Source: a virus
Lineage: Duplodnaviria > Heunggongvirae > Uroviricota > Caudoviricetes
Length of the DNA stretch: 39,485 nt
Virus record (IMG/VR): IMGVR_UViG_2534682294_000013
Reading direction: 5' to 3' (one strand)
The notes below the pieces were generated by a model. It ran no database searches and had not been told where the DNA came from. It saw only the letters and a list, made by a program, of their open reading frames with translations. This document shows positions 23,396-39,485 of this stretch, piece after piece. The first letter of the stretch is position 1, and each line of letters opens with the position of its first letter. A program made the translations under genes and the position numbers.

Positions 23396-25477
23396 ATGAC
23401 AGGTCGCCTGTTAGATGCTGTCCCACTCAGTTCCCTAACGGGCGTTGGCGCAGCACTTAGTAACAAACTGGCGAAAATCAACCTGCATACCGTGCAGGAT
23501 CTACTCTTACACCTTCCCCTGCGCTACGAAGATCGCACCCATCTCTACCCCATCGGAGAACTACTGCCGGGCGTTTATGCCACGGTGGAAGGCGAAGTGC
23601 TGAACTGCAATATCTCCTTCGGCGGTCGGCGGATGATGACCTGCCAGATCAGCGACGGTTCCGGCATCCTCACCATGCGCTTTTTCAATTTCAGCGCGGC
23701 AATGAAAAATAGCCTGGCGACGGGCCGCCGTGTACTGGCTTATGGCGAAGCAAAGCGCGGTAAATATGGTGCGGAGATGATCCACCCGGAATACCGCGTG
23801 CAGGGCGATCTCAGCACGCCAGAATTACAGGAAACGCTCACGCCGGTTTATCCAACAACGGAAGGCGTAAAGCAGGCCACGCTGCGTAAATTAACCGACC
23901 AGGCGCTGGATCTGCTCGACACCTGCGCCATTGAAGAACTCCTGCCGCCGGAACTGTCACAAGGAATGATGACGCTACCGGAAGCGTTGCGCACTTTGCA
24001 CCGCCCGCCACCGACGCTACAGCTTAGCGATCTGGAAACCGGGCAGCATCCAGCGCAACGTCGTCTGATTCTGGAAGAACTGCTGGCGCACAACCTCAGC
24101 ATGTTAGCCTTACGTGCCGGAGCACAGCGTTTTCATGCCCAGCCGCTGAGCGCCAATGATGCGCTGAAAAATAAACTCCTCGCAGCCTTACCGTTCAAGC
24201 CAACGGGCGCACAGGCACGCGTAGTGGCGGAGATCGAGCGCGATATGGCGCTGGATGTGCCGATGATGCGCCTGGTACAGGGCGATGTAGGTTCCGGTAA
24301 AACGCTGGTCGCCGCCCTCGCCGCGCTGCGTGCGATTGCCCACGGCAAACAGGTGGCATTGATGGCACCAACCGAATTACTCGCCGAACAGCACGCCAAT
24401 AACTTCCGCAACTGGTTTGAACCGCTCGGTATCGAAGTGGGCTGGCTCGCCGGTAAGCAGAAAGGCAAAGCGCGACTGTCTCAGCAGGAAGCCATCGCCA
24501 GCGGTCAGGTGCAGATGATTGTTGGTACGCACGCCATCTTCCAGGAACAGGTGCAGTTTAACGGTCTGGCGCTGGTGATTATCGACGAACAACATCGCTT
24601 TGGCGTGCATCAGCGTCTGGCGTTATGGGAGAAAGGCCAGCAGCAAGGCTTCCATCCGCATCAGTTGATCATGACCGCCACGCCGATCCCCCGCACGCTG
24701 GCAATGACGGCGTATGCCGATCTCGATACCTCGGTGATAGATGAGCTGCCGCCAGGCCGCACGCCAGTGACTACGGTCGCTATTCCTGATACCCGCCGTA
24801 CCGACATCATTGACCGCGTGCGCCACGCCTGCATAACTGAAGGTCGTCAGGCGTACTGGGTTTGTACGTTGATTGAAGAGTCAGAGTTACTGGAAGCGCA
24901 GGCGGCGGAAGCTACCTGGGAAGAGTTGAAACTGGCGCTACCAGAATTGAATGTTGGCCTGGTACACGGGCGGATGAAACCAGCCGAGAAACAGGCGGTG
25001 ATGGCGTCGTTTAAACAAGGTGAGCTACATCTGCTAGTTGCCACTACCGTTATTGAAGTCGGTGTTGATGTGCCTAACGCCAGCCTGATGATTATCGAAA
25101 ACCCTGAGCGTCTGGGTCTGGCGCAGTTACACCAGCTTCGCGGGCGTGTAGGTCGTGGTGCGGTGGCTTCTCACTGCGTGCTGCTCTACAAAACGCCGCT
25201 CTCCAAAACCGCGCAAATTCGGCTGCAAGTGCTGCGCGACAGCAACGACGGTTTTGTGATTGCACAGAAAGACTTAGAGATTCGCGGACCGGGTGAACTG
25301 TTAGGTACGCGTCAGACGGGTAATGCTGAGTTTAAAGTGGCGGATTTACTGCGCGATCAGGCGATGATCCCGGAAGTTCAGCGCCTGGCGCGACATATTC
25401 ACGAACGTTACCCACAACAAGCAAAAGCCCTGATAGAACGCTGGATGCCGGAGACGGAACGTTACTCCAACGCATGA
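23396..25477 (+). CDS. recG: ATP-dependent DNA helicase RecG
   Basis: ORF track 23363-25477 trimmed to MTGRLLDAVPLSSLTGVGAALSNKLAKI... (693 aa); helicase motifs GDVGSGKT and DEQHRFG. Confidence 0.9.
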   Translation: MTGRLLDAVPLSSLTGVGAALSNKLAKINLHTVQDLLLHLPLRYEDRTHLYPIGELLPGVYATVEGEVLNCNISFGGRRMMTCQISDGSGILTMRFFNFSAAMKNSLATGRRVLAYGEAKRGKYGAEMIHPEYRVQGDLSTPELQETLTPVYPTTEGVKQATLRKLTDQALDLLDTCAIEELLPPELSQGMMTLPEALRTLHRPPPTLQLSDLETGQHPAQRRLILEELLAHNLSMLALRAGAQRFHAQPLSANDALKNKLLAALPFKPTGAQARVVAEIERDMALDVPMMRLVQGDVGSGKTLVAALAALRAIAHGKQVALMAPTELLAEQHANNFRNWFEPLGIEVGWLAGKQKGKARLSQQEAIASGQVQMIVGTHAIFQEQVQFNGLALVIIDEQHRFGVHQRLALWEKGQQQGFHPHQLIMTATPIPRTLAMTAYADLDTSVIDELPPGRTPVTTVAIPDTRRTDIIDRVRHACITEGRQAYWVCTLIEESELLEAQAAEATWEELKLALPELNVGLVHGRMKPAEKQAVMASFKQGELHLLVATTVIEVGVDVPNASLMIIENPERLGLAQLHQLRGRVGRGAVASHCVLLYKTPLSKTAQIRLQVLRDSNDGFVIAQKDLEIRGPGELLGTRQTGNAEFKVADLLRDQAMIPEVQRLARHIHERYPQQAKALIERWMPETERYSNA

Positions 25478-26328
25478 CCAGACTCATCACAAGACAAGTC
25501 ACGCAGTAAATCTTCAATCTGGATAGTGAGGATATCCATTGCCTCATACGCATCCTGTGCAATTCGCGCCGCCATTGCGCCTTCCGGTTCACCACGCAGA
25601 ATTTCAGCCGCTGCCTGTACGCCAGCCACAATCATTTCAGGTGTTAACATTTGGCGAAGAAAAGCGCGATTATCAGAGGACCAGCCATCTTTATGGCCTA
25701 ATGGATGCCCCCAGCCTATCCATTCTTGCGACCATAACGGATTGGCTTCTATGGGATAAATTAGATGCGCGGCATACTGAATAGCACACACCGCTTTTCC
25801 TGGCGTATCCAGCGCCCACCAGCGCGACCAGAGAGAACGAATTAACGGCGCGGCCCCACCCAGAGTATTGAACACCGCCAGCCAGCAAAGAACGTTATTG
25901 AAACCACGCTCGTTATCCATACGCTGCAACGCGGTGTCCAGTAAAAATTGCCGTACCTGCTGGCGTTGGGAAGCATTCATCATCTCCTGCCAGAGATAGG
26001 GCCGACACAATGCCTTCATTAAGGATTCTTCGAAGTGATCACCATAACCGCCAGCTAAAACGGTTTCATGCCATTGCGCCAGGCAGAGCGGAAACAGATA
26101 GCGAAACAACTCTATTTGCATCGGTTCGTTATAAACGAGATTGAGTACATAGTAAGCACTCAAATCCCATTCGCTGATCTGCTGCCACTCTTTAGCCGCC
26201 AGCGCCTTGAGTTCGGCATCTGCGTAATCAAATTCCGTTTCCCATACACAGAGCACTGGCGGCTCATCACCAAAAATATGGCGACAGTGTTCACGTAGCG
26301 TTTCCGGTTCCTTCCGACGCTTTTTCAT
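25462..26328 (-). CDS. hypothetical protein, 288 aa, Trp-rich, no recognisable motif
   Basis: Long open frame (MKKRRKEPETLREHCRHIFGDEPPVL...) starting 2 nt after the gltS stop, with no competing long ORF on the other strand; 3' end overlaps the recG 3' end by 16 nt. I do not recognise the product. Confidence 0.65.
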   Translation of the reverse strand: MKKRRKEPETLREHCRHIFGDEPPVLCVWETEFDYADAELKALAAKEWQQISEWDLSAYYVLNLVYNEPMQIELFRYLFPLCLAQWHETVLAGGYGDHFEESLMKALCRPYLWQEMMNASQRQQVRQFLLDTALQRMDNERGFNNVLCWLAVFNTLGGAAPLIRSLWSRWWALDTPGKAVCAIQYAAHLIYPIEANPLWSQEWIGWGHPLGHKDGWSSDNRAFLRQMLTPEMIVAGVQAAAEILRGEPEGAMAARIAQDAYEAMDILTIQIEDLLRDLSCDESGHALE

Positions 26329-26330
26329 TT

Positions 26331-27536
26331 TTAACCGGCAAAAATCGGCAACATTAAATACAGCTTAATCACCAGCGCATTGACGATATCGATAAAGAAC
26401 GCACCGACCATCGGCACCACCAAAAACGCCATGTGCGACGGGCCAAAGCGTTCAGTGATCGCCTGCATGTTGGCGATTGCCGTTGGCGTTGCACCGAGGC
26501 CAAAACCACAGTGACCCGCAGCCAGCACTGCCGCATCGTAGTTTTTGCCCATCATGCGCCAGGTAACGAAGATGGCATACAACGCCATGAAGATGGTCTG
26601 TACCACCAGAATCGCCAGCATCGGCAGCGCCAGCGAAGCCAGCTCCCACAGTTTCAGCCCCATCAGCGCCATCGCCAGGAACAACGACAGGCTTACGTTA
26701 CCCAGCACGGATACCGCACGCTCAAAGACGCGGTAAAAGCCCATCATTGACAGACCGTTGCTCAGAATCACGCCAACAAACAGTACACAGACGAAGGTCG
26801 GCAGTTCAAAAGCAGTGCCAGCCAAAAGTTGCGCAACAATTTTCCCCACCGTCAGGCAGATAGCAATCAGCGCGATAGTTTCAATCAGCACCAGCGAGGT
26901 GATCATGCGGCCCACATCCGGCTTTTCAAACGCCGTCGGGACTTCCTGGTCATCCGGAATACCGTTCGGCGTGGTGGAGTGTTTCACCAGATAGCGCGCC
27001 ACCGGACCGCCAATCAAGCCGCCCAGCACCAGACCGAACGTTGCACAGGCCATCGCCACTTCCGTCGCATTGGTGAAGCCATAACGTTCAATGAACAATT
27101 TACTCCACGCAGCGCCCGTACCGTGACCGCCGGAAAGCGTAATAGAACCGGCCAACAGCCCCATCAGCGGATCAAGCCCTAACAGGCTAGCCATACCAAT
27201 GCCAATGGCATTTTGCATCACCAACAGACCAACAACCACAATCAAGAAGATGCCAACCACACGCCCACCGGCACGCAAACTGGCAATGTTGGCGTTCAGG
27301 CCAATGGTGGCGAAGAAAGCCAGCATTAACGGATCGCGCAGGGACATATCAAAGTTGACTTCCCAGCCCATGCTTTTTTTCAGTACTAGTAGCGCCAGCG
27401 CCACCAACAAACCACCCGCAACAGGTTCCGGTATGGTGTATTTCTTCAAAAAGGAGACGGAATGGACCAACTTACGCCCGAGCAACAACGTCAGCGTTGC
27501 GGCAACAAGCGTTGCTAAAGTATCGAGATGAAACAT
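26331..27536 (-). CDS. gltS: sodium/glutamate symporter
   Basis: 401-aa polytopic membrane ORF MFHLDTLATLVAATLTLLLGRKL... Confidence 0.9.
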   Translation of the reverse strand: MFHLDTLATLVAATLTLLLGRKLVHSVSFLKKYTIPEPVAGGLLVALALLVLKKSMGWEVNFDMSLRDPLMLAFFATIGLNANIASLRAGGRVVGIFLIVVVGLLVMQNAIGIGMASLLGLDPLMGLLAGSITLSGGHGTGAAWSKLFIERYGFTNATEVAMACATFGLVLGGLIGGPVARYLVKHSTTPNGIPDDQEVPTAFEKPDVGRMITSLVLIETIALIAICLTVGKIVAQLLAGTAFELPTFVCVLFVGVILSNGLSMMGFYRVFERAVSVLGNVSLSLFLAMALMGLKLWELASLALPMLAILVVQTIFMALYAIFVTWRMMGKNYDAAVLAAGHCGFGLGATPTAIANMQAITERFGPSHMAFLVVPMVGAFFIDIVNALVIKLYLMLPIFAG

Positions 27537-35092: not shown

Positions 35093-35187
35093 GGAAGATC
35101 GTCGTCTCCGGTGAGGCGGCTGGACTTCAAATCCAGTTGGGGCCGCCAGCGGTCCCGGGCAGGTTCGACTCCTGTGATCTTCCGCCA
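35093..35187 (+). tRNA. selC: tRNA-Sec (selenocysteine, UCA anticodon)
   Basis: GGAAGATCGTCGTCTCCGGTGAGGCGGCTGGACTTCAAATCCAGTTGGGGCCGCCAGCGGTCCCGGGCAGGTTCGACTCCTGTGATCTTCCGCCA: 95 nt with long variable arm, ACTTCAAAT anticodon loop and encoded CCA; matches E. coli selC as remembered. Confidence 0.95.
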
Positions 35188-35349
35188 AACCTCATCCAGC
35201 CAGTTCCGAGATACTCCATAAAATACTTTATATTCAATACGATGAATAATCAGCTTGTCCGTAATAGTCCGAGATCATCTCCCTGAATCCGCGAAAAATA
35301 TGTATAGTAATGTGTATAGATTTTTTATACGTAGTTTTCAGTTATACAC

Positions 35350-36537
35350 ATGGCTCTAACCGATATACAGATCAAACGTGCAAAACCACAAGACAAACCA
35401 TACACATTGAACGATGGACAAGGTCTGTCATTGCTTATCAATCCCGATGGCTCGAAAGGCTGGCGTTTCCGTTTCCGGTTTGCAGGGAAAGCGCGGTTAA
35501 TGTCATTTGGCAGCTACGATTTAGTAAGCCTCGCAGAAGCACGTGAGAAGCGTGATATCGCCCGTAAGCAGGTTGCTAATGGCATTGACCCGGTAGAGGA
35601 ACGCAAAGCTTTAAGACTCGCTCAAAAGCTATCAACAGAAAATTCTTTCGAAGCAATATGTCGAGAATGGTATACCAACAAAGCTGATCGCTGGACTGTA
35701 GCCTATCGAGAAGAAATCATTAGGACATTCGAGCAGGATGTCTTCCCGTTCATTGGTAAACGTCCTATCAGTGAAATCAAACCATTAGAACTGCTTGAAG
35801 TATTGCGACGAATAGAGAAACGAGGAGCACTAGAGAAGACCAGAAAAGTGCGCCAAAGATGCGGTGAGGTCTTTCGTTATGCAATCATAACTGGCCGAGC
35901 TGAATACAACCCAGCACCTGATTTAGCTATCGCTCTGGCCGTTCCTAAGCCAAAACACCACCCATTTTTATCTGTCGAAGAGTTGCCTTATTTTATTCGG
36001 GATTTGGAGGCATACTCCGGCAGCATAATCACCAAAAATGCAACTAAGATAGTTATGCTTACTGGTGTAAGAACGCAGGAGATGCGCTTTGCTACGTGGG
36101 AAGAGGTTGATTTGGATAAGGAGGTTTGGGAGATACCAGCGGAACGTATGAAAATGCGTAGGCCTCACATTGTTCCTTTATCTACTCAGGTAGTTGACCT
36201 TTTTAAACAGCTCAAACCAATTACCGGTCATTACCCTTACATCTTTATTGGCAGGAACAACCGTAGCAAACCGATCTCGAAAGAAAGTGTTTCACAAGTG
36301 ATTGAGTTACTTGGTTACAAAGGCCGTGCTACAGGTCATGGATTTAGACATACAATGTCAACAATATTACATGAACAAGGGTTTGACAGTGCCTGGATTG
36401 AGATGCAATTAGCACATGTTGATAAAAATTCTATTCGTGGAACATACAATCACGCACAATATTTAGAAAATAGACGCGCAATGCTTCAGTGGTATAGTAA
36501 CTTCATATTTAATAAAATTAGTGAAGACACACTTTGA
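35350..36537 (+). CDS. int: P4-family tyrosine integrase
   Basis: 395-aa ORF MALTDIQIKRAKPQDKPYTLNDGQGLSLLINPDGSKGWRFRFRFAGK... (typical P4-integrase N-terminus) with a C-terminal catalytic region (HGFRHT ... Y); 162 nt 3' of selC. Confidence 0.85.
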   Translation: MALTDIQIKRAKPQDKPYTLNDGQGLSLLINPDGSKGWRFRFRFAGKARLMSFGSYDLVSLAEAREKRDIARKQVANGIDPVEERKALRLAQKLSTENSFEAICREWYTNKADRWTVAYREEIIRTFEQDVFPFIGKRPISEIKPLELLEVLRRIEKRGALEKTRKVRQRCGEVFRYAIITGRAEYNPAPDLAIALAVPKPKHHPFLSVEELPYFIRDLEAYSGSIITKNATKIVMLTGVRTQEMRFATWEEVDLDKEVWEIPAERMKMRRPHIVPLSTQVVDLFKQLKPITGHYPYIFIGRNNRSKPISKESVSQVIELLGYKGRATGHGFRHTMSTILHEQGFDSAWIEMQLAHVDKNSIRGTYNHAQYLENRRAMLQWYSNFIFNKISEDTL

Positions 36538-36547
36538 TTTATAAATA

Positions 36548-36575
36548 AAAAGAGCCTCTTCCGAAGCTCTTTTTT
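36548..36575. terminator. bidirectional intrinsic terminator between convergent int and the cargo operon
   Basis: aaaagagc-ctcttccgaa-gctctttt: 8-bp stem flanked by an A-run 5' and a T-run 3', so it reads as hairpin plus U-run on both strands; 10 nt after the int stop and 7 nt after the small-ORF stop. Confidence 0.45.
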
Positions 36576-36581
36576 AATTGT

Positions 36582-36755
36582 TTATTTATTGTTCTTCAAT
36601 CTTTTATCTTCTTGTAAAACAAGATTATTTAACACTTTAATTGACTTGGAGGATAAATCATCTCCTCCTAACATATTTTTTTTCCATTCCGGCCATTCAT
36701 TAATTATTTTTTTAGTTGCAACCACATGTTTAATAAAACCATTTTCGATAGACAT
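36582..36755 (-). CDS. small basic protein, 57 aa, translationally coupled to the upstream deaminase-fusion gene
   Basis: Own translation, not in the ORF track: MSIENGFIKHVVATKKIINEWPEWKKNMLGGDDLSSKSIKVLNNLVLQEDKRLKNNK. ATG at 36753-36755 is 1 nt after the upstream stop; AGGAG (plus strand ctcct, 36762-36766) sits 6 nt upstream of the ATG. 57 stop-free codons in ~30% GC DNA. Confidence 0.5.
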   Translation of the reverse strand: MSIENGFIKHVVATKKIINEWPEWKKNMLGGDDLSSKSIKVLNNLVLQEDKRLKNNK

Positions 36756-36756
36756 G

Positions 36757-38277
36757 TTAAACTCCTATGATCTTTGCGAATAAGTTAACAGAAATCTGCT
36801 CTCTTTCCAAGTAAGAAATAGGCAACAGTGATATTCTTAATGACGAATTAGACTCAGTCCATTTAACAACATTTCCCGACTTATCTTTTCTCTTAATTTT
36901 ATTACCACTTCCATTAACAATGGAAAATAGATTAAAATAGACTCGTGGACCTATTCCAATAAAAGGTTCGAAAAGCACCTTTCCTTGGTTTTTTTCATCA
37001 TTAGTTATTGATTCTGAATGAAATTCATAAGCCTTACTTTTTGGATATGGCTCTATGTAAACCACCCTCTTTATTCCCGAAGCTATAATATGCTTAGCGC
37101 AGTTGTGGCATGGGAAAGTAGTGCAATATATATAAGCATCTTGAGTACTAATATTTGTTCTAGCGCATGCTAAAATAGCTTCCATTTCAGCATGCACCAC
37201 ACGACCATATTCCGTAATATCTTGAATCAGGCTGTTATTGAGGATTCTCTCAAAATTATCACGAGATTTTCTAGGTATTTGATTGAGAATATCATGTATA
37301 ATTTCTCTTTTTTGTTTAGCATTCGAATCAAAACCTCTTACATAGTCCCTTCCTTCCGGATAGTCTTCATAAATTTCGTTCTCTGCATTAAAATATGGCC
37401 AGTATAAACCACCACCAGACTTAGGAACATCATTAGCACCAGTTGACATAATAGCGTAATTTTTTGCTAATACAGCTCCAACTTGTCTTGATAAATCAGC
37501 AGATCTCAAAGCTGAAGAAAAGGCCATATACATTGCATATTCATCAAATGTTGGCGTAATAAAAGGATTACCGAATAGCAAATCAAAAACTCTTTTTATA
37601 TCATTATTAAGTTTATCATCTCGGCCATCTTGGTTTAAAAAGAAATCAGCCAAATGAAATGTATCTCTGGTATGCTGCCCATGCCCAGACTCTTCATCTT
37701 CATCTCTAGCAATCAATAACGCTGCTTTATCTTCTGGAATTCCTTTATTACGAATTAAATTATCTAACCTGCGACTCTCATCAGAAAAAATACCAAACAA
37801 TAAAAATCCCGAGCCATATACTTCTCTTAATTTATACACCTCTTCTGGATGCTTTATTGAATTTATAACATATGCAATTCCTTTTTTATTTATTTGTAAA
37901 CGTGCATGCTTTGCCCTAATCTCATTAATTTTAGCTATTGCTCCAAGAGCCAATATATAATTACATTCACTATCCTCCCTCAGTTTATTTCCCTTAGTCA
38001 TTAAGCCATCAATTCTTTGGTAATTATCTGTATAATCTCCATTACCTAAGAGCTCAGCTATCACATCAGATGAAATCCGAACTTCAGAACATTCAAATTT
38101 ATATAAGGATAATCTATCTCTTATTTTTTTTGTAATTGCTTCTAGGTCTGTGCCAACGGAAGAAACTAACCCTATTACCATTTCTGCTAAAGGTCCTGTG
38201 GATTGCTTATCCTCCCCTGAGTTTTTTAAAAGCTGAGGTGCTTCTTTATTCAATTCTGTTATCTTTGTAATTTTCAT
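36757..38277 (-). CDS. two-domain protein: unassigned N-terminal domain fused to a cytidine/dCMP-deaminase-like zinc-binding domain; candidate anti-phage deaminase
   Basis: 506-aa ORF. C-terminal half has the CDA-fold signature: FDEYAMYMAFSSALRSADLSRQVGAVLAKNYAIMSTGAND (aa 244-283), HAEMEAI (H362, E364) and PCHNC (C390, C393). N-terminal ~230 aa has a Gly-rich segment GLVSSVGTD but no canonical Walker A. AT-rich; lies between int and cos/psu. Confidence 0.85.
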   Translation of the reverse strand: MKITKITELNKEAPQLLKNSGEDKQSTGPLAEMVIGLVSSVGTDLEAITKKIRDRLSLYKFECSEVRISSDVIAELLGNGDYTDNYQRIDGLMTKGNKLREDSECNYILALGAIAKINEIRAKHARLQINKKGIAYVINSIKHPEEVYKLREVYGSGFLLFGIFSDESRRLDNLIRNKGIPEDKAALLIARDEDEESGHGQHTRDTFHLADFFLNQDGRDDKLNNDIKRVFDLLFGNPFITPTFDEYAMYMAFSSALRSADLSRQVGAVLAKNYAIMSTGANDVPKSGGGLYWPYFNAENEIYEDYPEGRDYVRGFDSNAKQKREIIHDILNQIPRKSRDNFERILNNSLIQDITEYGRVVHAEMEAILACARTNISTQDAYIYCTTFPCHNCAKHIIASGIKRVVYIEPYPKSKAYEFHSESITNDEKNQGKVLFEPFIGIGPRVYFNLFSIVNGSGNKIKRKDKSGNVVKWTESNSSLRISLLPISYLEREQISVNLFAKIIGV

Positions 38278-38475
38278 ATGAAGTCATTCATCCAGTGAAG
38301 ATACAAAACATTTTTATAAATAATTCTTAGCATGTTTTCTATGTTTTCATTAAATTTTTTGAATTACCTCATGTTTTACATTTAAGCAACACAAGGTAAA
38401 CAACTGTTATATAAGAAAATTGAAAGCATAATGAATGATGTAGTTGGCTGTCACGTCTTCCCACTTCGTAGGGCG

Positions 38476-38490
38476 GATTCAGGCTGAATC
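38476..38490. repeat. 15-bp perfect palindrome in the cargo-operon upstream region
   Basis: gattcag-g-ctgaatc: 7-bp inverted arms around one central nucleotide, ~200 nt upstream of the deaminase-fusion start codon. Confidence 0.4.
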
Positions 38491-38734
38491 ATAGATAGTT
38501 TTAGACCTCTTATAGGACCGAATGTATAAGATGAAGGTATTAGAGGAGCTGAGCGCCTTCAAAACCGCCACTCAGTATCTAAACCGGGCAATACTTTCTC
38601 GCCCCTAACTTAGCCACTCATGGGCTCATCACGCCATCAAACATTACTGCACGATCACTAATACTCGTTCGAAACGGCACAGTACTACGGTACACCAAGT
38701 CCCGCAAAAATAAATACATTACCGCTGGCGCGCA

Positions 38735-38753
38735 GTGCTTTCCCCGCCTCGCC
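38735..38753. other. P2/P4-type cos site (19-nt cohesive-end sequence)
   Basis: gtgctttccccgcctcgcc is the exact reverse complement of GGCGAGGCGGGGAAAGCAC, the P2/P4 cohesive end as I remember it; located just 3' of psu as in P4. Confidence 0.7.
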
Positions 38754-38856
38754 CGCCCGCTTTGCGGGGCGGTTTTAATGCAGTTTCACTGACACGCTCA
38801 GGCCGCGCCGGGAATGGCGCGGTCTGCAGAAAATGAGGCAGGAAAACGCATGCAAA

Positions 38857-38887
38857 GCCATGCACCTTATCGATGCATGGCTTTTTT
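38857..38887 (+). terminator. intrinsic terminator (strongest in + orientation) 30 nt beyond the psu stop
   Basis: gccatgca-ccttatcga-tgcatggc-tttttt: 8-bp stem plus T6 on the plus strand, preceded by AAA so it may act in both directions. Confidence 0.5.
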
Positions 38888-38917
38888 CAGTAAAAACGGG
38901 CGGATTTTCGGGGAGTT

Positions 38918-39485
38918 TTACACAGACTGATGTGATGCCAGTTGCGCACTTTTACGCGAAAAAATCATGTTCTGCGCAGGGGTGAATTTTTCACGGCTGT
39001 CATCCACCGAAGCCGCGTCAGGCCTGAATCCGATGGTCGTTAAAATGTCGCTATCCTGTGCGGAATAATTAATTTTTTCCCCCTTCGCAAGCCAGGACAG
39101 GAGGGCTTCACGCAGGGCATCTGTGGCACGCTGTATGGCACAGTTTCGGGCAATGGCCGTCAGCTCACTGTAACCCATCAGCTCCGGTGCCAGTGCGGCC
39201 GCCAGTACTGTGCCGTGCTGCTGCATAAAATCATTCAGCCGGTCGCGGATGCTGATGTGCTGAACGGCTTCATGCGAACGAATATAACGACCGGCGGCCT
39301 GATTCACCTGCCATTTTCTGACTTCGATAATATTGCGTAATTCGTCCAGGCGGCTGACGTTTCTGCCTTCTCCTGACAGAAGCCGCAGATATTCCTGTTC
39401 GGCCGCTGCCAGCTCATTTTTGCGTTGCAGCCATGCTGCTTTGTTATTCTGACAGGTGTCAAAGGCCTGCTGTAAGGCTGTGCTT
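38918..39485 (-). CDS. psu: P4 Psu-like polarity-suppression / capsid decoration protein (5' end ~5 nt beyond window)
   Basis: The frame of track ORF 38918-39307 stays open to the window edge. Own translation from the edge: STALQQAFDTCQNNKAAWLQRKNELAAAEQEYLRLLSGEGRNVSRLDELRNIIEVRKWQVNQAAGRYIRSHEAV...; resembles the P4 Psu N-terminus as remembered, and the implied length (~190 aa) fits. Confidence 0.65.
   Translation of the reverse strand, partial: STALQQAFDTCQNNKAAWLQRKNELAAAEQEYLRLLSGEGRNVSRLDELRNIIEVRKWQVNQAAGRYIRSHEAVQHISIRDRLNDFMQQHGTVLAAALAPELMGYSELTAIARNCAIQRATDALREALLSWLAKGEKINYSAQDSDILTTIGFRPDAASVDDSREKFTPAQNMIFSRKSAQLASHQSV

Follow-up and report, generated by a model that had tools for sequence, protein, structure and literature searches.

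A strain-variable gene between recG and gltS of Escherichia coli as a candidate orphan immunity gene of a new Rhs toxin-immunity family

What is the role of the gene that lies between recG and gltS in about a third of Escherichia coli genomes, O157:H7 included, and that distinguishes them from K-12? The copy discussed here is part of a 39,485-nt stretch of DNA (IMG/VR virus record IMGVR_UViG_2534682294_000013; hereafter the window) that is 100% identical to E. coli O157:H7 chromosomes and carries, in order, waa genes, coaBC, spoT, trmH, recG, the gene in question, gltS, xanP, yicH, yicI, yicJ and selC. The gene is an 867-nt open reading frame (ORF) of 288 codons at window positions 25462-26328 on the minus strand, annotated in RefSeq as a coding sequence for a 'hypothetical protein' (WP_000747329.1) and named Ybl159 in UniRef. 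An earlier note, made from the letters of the window alone, had singled out ybl159 and proposed no function for it. The most likely of the readings weighed here, which we hold at a probability of roughly 45%, is that ybl159 is an orphan immunity gene of a new Rhs toxin-immunity family; the link between this protein family and Rhs immunity is itself new. The assignment of a 288-aa candidate orphan immunity protein draws on the ORF list, RefSeq, UniRef, the family alignment, selection and a structure model.

The key evidence comes from distant relatives. The one informative genomic context of the family is the immunity-gene slot of Rhs polymorphic toxins, which are delivered by a type VI secretion system (T6SS). 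In these loci the family gene stands immediately downstream of the toxin C-terminal domain and on the same strand: at locus L029, P0173 is separated by 12 nt from a preceding 1,340-aa Rhs protein that has DUF6531, RHS repeats and a YD shell; at L104/L105 a 1,345-aa Rhs protein ends 2 nt before P0197, and L104 is a VgrG/T6SS cluster that contains two VgrG genes; at L108 the Rhs protein is truncated, and P0195 begins 12 nt downstream of it. After a DPxGL motif the three Rhs proteins share a C-terminal domain of ~105 aa at 76% identity (L029 5666-5986; L104 6676-6996; L108 1432-1752), with the consensus AFNPI…RDKR..GGGGTHGLVNR.REQILG…GW.THE…PPTG.ER.VPK.CR and its glycine-rich GGGGTHGLVNR motif. 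This domain has no match in Pfam or the PDB and may represent a new toxin family. At L106/L107 a full-length Rhs protein ends in a different C-terminal domain, and downstream of it a decayed remnant of the ~105-aa-type toxin C-terminus, interrupted by in-frame stop codons, directly precedes P0196, a family member with a true N-terminus that reaches as far as the remnant. This arrangement of toxin remnant and immunity gene is a classic displaced orphan module. The family co-varies with one toxin domain type, in three loci and in the displaced remnant.

The homology that ties the E. coli protein to these Rhs-linked proteins is solid and extends over the full length. An hhalign comparison of the E. 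coli clade with the Rhs-linked clade gave a probability of 99.9% (E = 6.7e-33, 269 columns), and a profile built from the E. coli clade alone matches P0173 at E = 1.9e-26. The gene also shares traits seen in immunity genes, namely a product lacking transmembrane segments, presence or absence at the level of strains, a sporadic distribution and rapid divergence, and the combination of presence/absence polymorphism, fast evolution under purifying selection and patchy spread fits an immunity role. Protection by orphan immunity genes from non-self T6SS/Rhs effectors has documented precedents (PMC10539506, PMC12247911, PMC5361080).

The variability among strains is extensive. At an identity of at least 95%, ybl159 is found in 1,911-1,918 of 5,426 complete E. 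coli genomes, about 35%, always on the chromosome and nearly always as a single copy. The earlier note gave recG and gltS as adjacent in K-12 and suspected a strain-variable insertion; the adjacency is borne out, with a 168-bp spacer and no gene between them, and so is the variability. Mapping of the recG-gltS junction distinguished three alleles in E. coli: the one with ybl159, the 168-bp K-12-type spacer in about 1,870 genomes, and, in the remaining roughly 1,640, a 33-bp spacer formed by one GC-rich hairpin between the recG and gltS stop codons. The K-12 allele (L001 3293-3460) is this same hairpin split by a repetitive extragenic palindrome (REP)-like insert of about 135 bp. The polarity implied by the word insertion is probably wrong: to all appearances the gene has long resided at the 3' flank of recG and has undergone repeated loss.

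Enterobacterial relatives speak for such a long residence. Orthologs at 48-71% identity occupy the same site and converge on the 3' end of recG, either 0-14 nt away from it or overlapping it by 16 nt. Their hosts are Salmonella enterica, Klebsiella sp., Pseudocitrobacter, Intestinirhabdus, two Superficieibacter species, Enterobacter sp. kpr-6 and one further enterobacterium; the exception in spacing is Superficieibacter electus, where a gap of roughly 350 nt holds an extra ORF. Pseudocitrobacter and Intestinirhabdus have the identical 16-nt recG overlap and the same …ALE C-terminus as the window copy, and recG is the only neighbour kept across all enterobacterial copies. A search of the phage collection found the gene in no phage genome, and its three matches in the plasmid collection (one spanning recG, two in megabase-sized records) look chromosomal, in keeping with the earlier suggestion that the gene is old rather than recently mobile. 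In Salmonella the ortholog was not found in the species representative, from which we infer that it is polymorphic there too.

The coupling to gltS proposed in the earlier note has a narrower range. It holds in E. coli, in Salmonella (2-nt gap) and in one other lineage, the P0023 host (1-nt overlap), and fails in several genera that keep the gene beside recG at a locus lacking gltS. The upstream gene is then xanP, except at L003-L006, where it is an unrelated one with an N-terminus that, in our own reading of the sequence, looks like glpX. A GGGAGG Shine-Dalgarno sequence precedes the gene in the gltS-less Pseudocitrobacter, Superficieibacter sp. and Enterobacter sp. kpr-6. Co-occurrence with gltS is not conserved, given that L003-L008 and L030 have the gene without gltS and most E. 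coli have gltS alone.

Purifying selection acts on the protein. Compared with syntenic orthologs, the proportion of nonsynonymous differences (pN) is 0.20-0.37 and that of synonymous differences (pS) 0.71-0.85, the latter being saturated between genera. Each of the 12 Escherichia-type alleles examined is intact; for the more divergent among them the nonsynonymous-to-synonymous rate ratio (omega) is 0.12-0.27. Protein identity between genera is 48-69%, compared with 90-95% for RecG from the same loci (divergence of 31-52% versus 5-8%), so that the protein diverges 5-10 times faster than RecG. Frameshifts or low coding potential in relatives had been named beforehand as grounds for doubting the gene, and the orthologs proved intact in every lineage examined, with omega below 1. 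Since it is annotated in RefSeq, conserved with omega <1 and confidently folded, ybl159 is a genuine gene and not a chance ORF.

We hypothesize that the product of ybl159, a cytoplasmic and all-helical protein from a family not described before, would bind and neutralise a small toxin domain that competitors inject and that acts in the cytoplasm. Its expression would be constitutive, riding on the gltS message through translational coupling, a proposal made because neither a promoter-like site, a terminator-like site nor a Shine-Dalgarno sequence lies between the two genes. Carriers, roughly 35% of E. coli, would be protected from toxins delivered by other bacteria, with no cognate toxin adjacent to the gene. 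Direct binding of the toxin and a retained immunity role for the E. coli copy are the inferred steps of this model. A fuller version, unlikely when taken as a whole, is that ybl159 is a vertically inherited orphan immunity gene, kept polymorphic at the recG 3' flank across Escherichia, Salmonella and other genera by recurrent exposure to an Rhs-type toxin and wired into the gltS operon, and that it forms a new toxin-immunity family with the ~105-aa Rhs domain.

Several observations weigh against an orphan immunity gene. Identity between the E. coli protein and its Rhs-linked relatives is only about 24%, and toxin adjacency occurs in one clade only, at 4 distinct loci of roughly 45 non-E. coli contexts; a search for Rhs across the first 103 loci found L029 alone. 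No toxin gene or remnant lies beside the E. coli copy or any enterobacterial copy. The whole 39-kb window is free of matches to Rhs, VgrG, PAAR or the toxin domain, and the gene upstream of ybl159 is gltS; because toxin adjacency fails there, the window copy can only be a putative orphan. A homolog of the toxin domain was likewise absent from the window, the fetched loci, plasmids and phages, with E. coli and gut proteomes outside the search. Orphan immunity genes do not usually keep one position for so long, as this one does next to recG in several genera, and the gene could have been domesticated for another role. Finally, eight residues are near-invariant across phyla (Y60, Q71, P80, W86, W170, G177, W216 and N220), which is more conservation than many immunity families have.

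One alternative is that Ybl159 is a helical-repeat cytoplasmic protein with an endogenous role as a binding partner or regulator, in which case the Rhs-linked clade would be a secondary recruitment of the fold and the enterobacterial copies would never have had an immunity role or would have lost it. We regard this as somewhat unlikely, considering that about 65% of E. coli, K-12 included, do without the gene, that its taxa are sporadic and its sequence evolves 5-10 times faster than RecG, and that no partner gene is conserved in any context while the neighbourhoods are of a conflict type. If the partner were GltS, Ybl159 would be an accessory or regulatory subunit of the symporter, kept stoichiometric by translational coupling. 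In favour of this, E. coli has a 2-nt gap devoid of a Shine-Dalgarno sequence, Salmonella shows that layout too, and the P0023 host has a 1-nt overlap. This is nevertheless very improbable for a soluble, acidic protein whose gene stays beside recG in the absence of gltS, with a Shine-Dalgarno sequence of its own, in Klebsiella sp., Pseudocitrobacter, Superficieibacter, Intestinirhabdus and Enterobacter sp.; most E. coli carry gltS by itself, and family members outside the Enterobacteriaceae never adjoin it.

A role tied to recG, whether through action with RecG in DNA repair or through antisense read-through that tunes the 3' end of the spoT-trmH-recG operon, has in its favour the constancy of recG as sole conserved neighbour of the enterobacterial copies, at a gap of 0-14 nt or a 16-nt overlap, and the lack of a terminator-like site between the two genes where ORF-less alleles bear a hairpin terminator instead. 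We give it little credence, however, given that convergent genes are not co-transcribed, that the family occurs apart from recG outside the Enterobacteriaceae, that inherited synteny explains the adjacency, and that purifying selection on the protein shows the gene to be more than a spacer. An RNA-damage response or RNA-repair component is suggested with equally slight probability by two planctomycete-type loci in which genes of an RNA-repair type, for RlaP nucleotidyltransferase, RNA ligase and an R2K ATP-grasp protein, stand beside a family member (L085 8382-10908 and L109 6999-9736); these two loci are related (RlaP 66% identical), the genes do not form one operon in L109, and the association is absent elsewhere, all enterobacteria included. 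That context also fits immunity, as a defence island against an RNA-targeting toxin would look alike. As for a spurious ORF or a decaying pseudogene, the low third-position G+C (GC3) relative to the neighbours and an annotation as merely hypothetical would agree with it, and it is effectively refuted by orthologs of 48-71% identity that are intact and give an omega well below 1, by 441 family clusters, by the confident fold and by Shine-Dalgarno sequences in the orthologs.

Returning to the orphan immunity gene and its family, the protein matches nothing that has been named. No match was found for it in Pfam (E <= 1), NCBIfam, PADLOC or PHROGs, for 89 family members in Pfam at E <= 0.01, or, at significance, for the single protein and the family profile in PDB sequence searches, and the literature on likely locus tags, "ybl159" and the recG/gltS/O157 neighbourhood held nothing relevant to the gene. 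The earlier observation of no recognisable motif therefore extends to no known function in these sources; the absence of PADLOC and PHROG matches and of the gene from phage genomes also sets it apart from known anti-phage defence and phage families. Structure prediction, which the earlier note had called for along with a domain search, gave a confident, all-helical AlphaFold2 model of 15 helices (predicted local distance difference test 88.6, predicted template modelling score 0.88), for which Foldseek returned nothing at E <= 0.001 against the PDB and BFVD. In a protein search the exact sequence was not the top match, probably because its 90%-identity cluster is chimeric, with a 401-aa GltS as representative and most named members GltS.

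The family forms a BLAST continuum. An exhaustive profile search recovered 441 clusters (50% identity) at E <= 0.001, nearly all of them single-domain proteins of 270-330 aa, compared with only about 33 clusters in word-indexed searches, and where a profile search looked for source names or fused domains, it gave nothing beyond "hypothetical protein". The metagenome scan was seeded with alignment A1, the wide alignment A2 being too divergent. Species representatives that carry a member are scattered over Enterobacteriaceae, Leminorella, Cupriavidus, Zoogloeaceae, Planctomycetota, Bryobacterales, Chthonomonadaceae and Microcoleus, a sporadic spread over Proteobacteria, Planctomycetota, Acidobacteriota, Armatimonadota and Cyanobacteria. 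Some copies are disrupted: a planctomycete member (L019 5959-8111) is split by an inserted element with ORFs of 276 and 107 aa, probably an insertion sequence, and the copy in L017 is fragmented across reading frames.

A search for a neighbour common to the distant, non-enterobacterial loci found none. Individual loci have conflict-type surroundings: a TIR_2 protein with two muramidases immediately upstream of the family member (L086), Tox-PL-2 at a distance of 2 kb (L091), tandem HEAT_2 genes (L092), McrBC (L010), an array of ankyrin, NUDIX and DUF genes (L018), and patatin, RNA ligase and RlaP (L109). A truncated upstream gene in L112/L113, considered as a toxin, was rejected, being the helix-turn-helix tail of a regulator. 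In Leminorella grimontii (L009 4933-7835) the family member stands between two ORFs on the same strand, which from their N-terminal sequences we take to be gapA and yeaD. These two genes are adjacent in E. coli, and if our identification is right this would be a second case of a family gene wedged between core genes.

Within the window, the layout of the gene agrees with the earlier description. The ORF runs from an ATG at 26326-26328 to a TAA at 25462-25464, and a 2-nt spacer, AA, separates that ATG from the stop codon of gltS (26331-26333), the sodium/glutamate symporter gene located upstream at 26331-27536 on the minus strand (ORF list, RefSeq). The minus-strand sequence at the ORF start reads TAAAAATG, and the junction TAA-AA-ATG (26326-26333, minus strand) lacks a Shine-Dalgarno sequence, which is why we propose that its translation is coupled to that of gltS. 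Between gltS and the ORF neither a promoter-like nor a terminator-like site was seen, and the two are probably co-transcribed in the E. coli lineage. On the other side recG, at 23396-25477 on the plus strand (RefSeq; orthologous loci), ends in a TGA at 25475-25477, so that the ORF 3' end (…H-A-L-E-stop) overlaps the convergent recG 3' end (…R-Y-S-N-A-stop) by 16 nt (25462-25477), with no terminator-like site between the genes. The G+C of the ORF is core-like, as had been estimated, at 50.3%, and its GC3 of 0.50 lies below that of gltS (0.65) and recG (0.62).

The composition noted earlier was also recovered. The product contains 13 Trp (4.5%), has an isoelectric point of 4.93 and lacks a signal peptide, and no transmembrane segment is expected because its highest Kyte-Doolittle mean over 19 residues is only 1.46. 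According to the model and the composition, the C-terminal helices (aa 249-288; 25465-25584, minus strand) are acidic: of the last 40 residues, 10 are acidic and 2 basic. The N-terminal tail MKKRRKEPET (26299-26328, minus strand) is basic, as it is in most orthologs, and has lower model confidence. The most conserved block of the family alignment, QIELFRYLFPLCLAQW, corresponds to aa 71-86 (26071-26118, minus strand), where P80 is the sole residue invariant in the wide family and Q71 and W86 are near-invariant. The alignment also marks a WSRWW motif at aa 167-171 (25816-25830, minus strand), within which W170 is near-invariant across the family.

Comparison of the junction alleles places the exchanged block at 25468-26330, which ORF-less alleles replace with the 33-bp hairpin, intact or split by the REP-like insert. 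Its left edge lies inside the last recG codons, where S-N-A-stop is encoded by differing codons per allele: TCC AAC GCA TGA in ORF-bearing alleles and TCG AAT GCG TAA in ORF-less ones, so that all four synonymous or stop positions differ in the last 11 nt of recG (window 25467-25477; L001 3282-3292; L027 1806-1816). The boundary is placed there because these final 11 nt differ, yet L027, a 33-bp allele, is 100% identical over the preceding ~300 nt. On the minus strand the hairpin (L027 1817-1849) begins TAA-CCG-ATGAAGCGGCGG, resembling the ORF start TAA-AA-ATGAAAAAGCGTCGG, and the 33-bp spacer may be a deletion scar that retains the first ORF codons. As a clear scar it was set aside, the match between ATGAAGCGGCGG and ATGAAAAAGCGTCGG being too short and a hint at most. 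Relative to K-12, recG is a mosaic, 99-100% identical over its first ~650 nt and 90-97% identical over most of 24040-25310 in its 3' half, while gltS and xanP are 98-100% identical; the recG pattern differs against the 33-bp-allele strain. This suggests recombination tracts around the variable junction.

Farther away in the window, the selC region (35093-39485) holds tRNA-Sec, a tyrosine integrase, a 57-aa hypothetical gene and genes named in RefSeq "anti-phage dCTP deaminase" and "phage polarity suppression protein", and has the appearance of a P4-like satellite, or of a defence islet, that integrated at selC.

If ybl159 is an orphan immunity gene, about a third of E. coli, among them O157:H7 and many Shiga-toxin-producing strains, would carry a constitutive shield against a specific contact-dependent toxin that K-12 and the other two thirds would lack, and thus a simple determinant of how strains compete with each other in the gut. 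An unannotated family of about 441 clusters (50% identity) and a new small Rhs toxin domain would then have a first clue to their function. If it is not, what stands is a well-validated, structurally confident orphan family at a variable core-genome site, and a modest annotation fix. In either case the finding is not a new principle; it concerns a gene that separates O157:H7 and a third of E. coli from K-12.

How does this system compare with those already known? In architecture the protein resembles HEAT/ARM/TOG-type alpha-solenoids such as the TOG domain of Cep104 (5lph), Nup188 and importins, a likeness that does not extend to sequence, the HEAT, ARM and TPR profiles being among the Pfam models that matched neither the protein nor the 89 members at the thresholds given above. 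Superposition on CdiI of E. coli 3006 (6cp8_D) aligns 80 residues at a root-mean-square deviation of 9.8 A, which is not a meaningful match. The closer parallel is with Rhs/T6SS effector-immunity pairs of the RhsI type: distant homologs of Ybl159 occupy the same slot, 2-12 nt after the Rhs stop codon on the same strand, and share with such pairs a recurring toxin domain, one VgrG cluster and a displaced remnant module. Unlike those pairs, the E. coli gene lacks any rhs, vgrG or toxin remnant in its vicinity and has a glutamate transporter gene upstream, and neither the toxin domain nor the candidate immunity family matches any Pfam Tox, Ntox or Imm model. Among known orphan immunities, those against a Serratia Rhs NADase (PMC10539506), in Bacteroidales (PMC12247911) and in Vibrio cholerae arrays (PMC5361080) are likewise stand-alone, strain-polymorphic and fast-evolving. 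These known orphans usually reside in effector clusters, immunity arrays or mobile islands, whereas ybl159 is a single gene set between two core genes, apparently coupled to one, overlapping the other and fixed at this site across enterobacterial genera.

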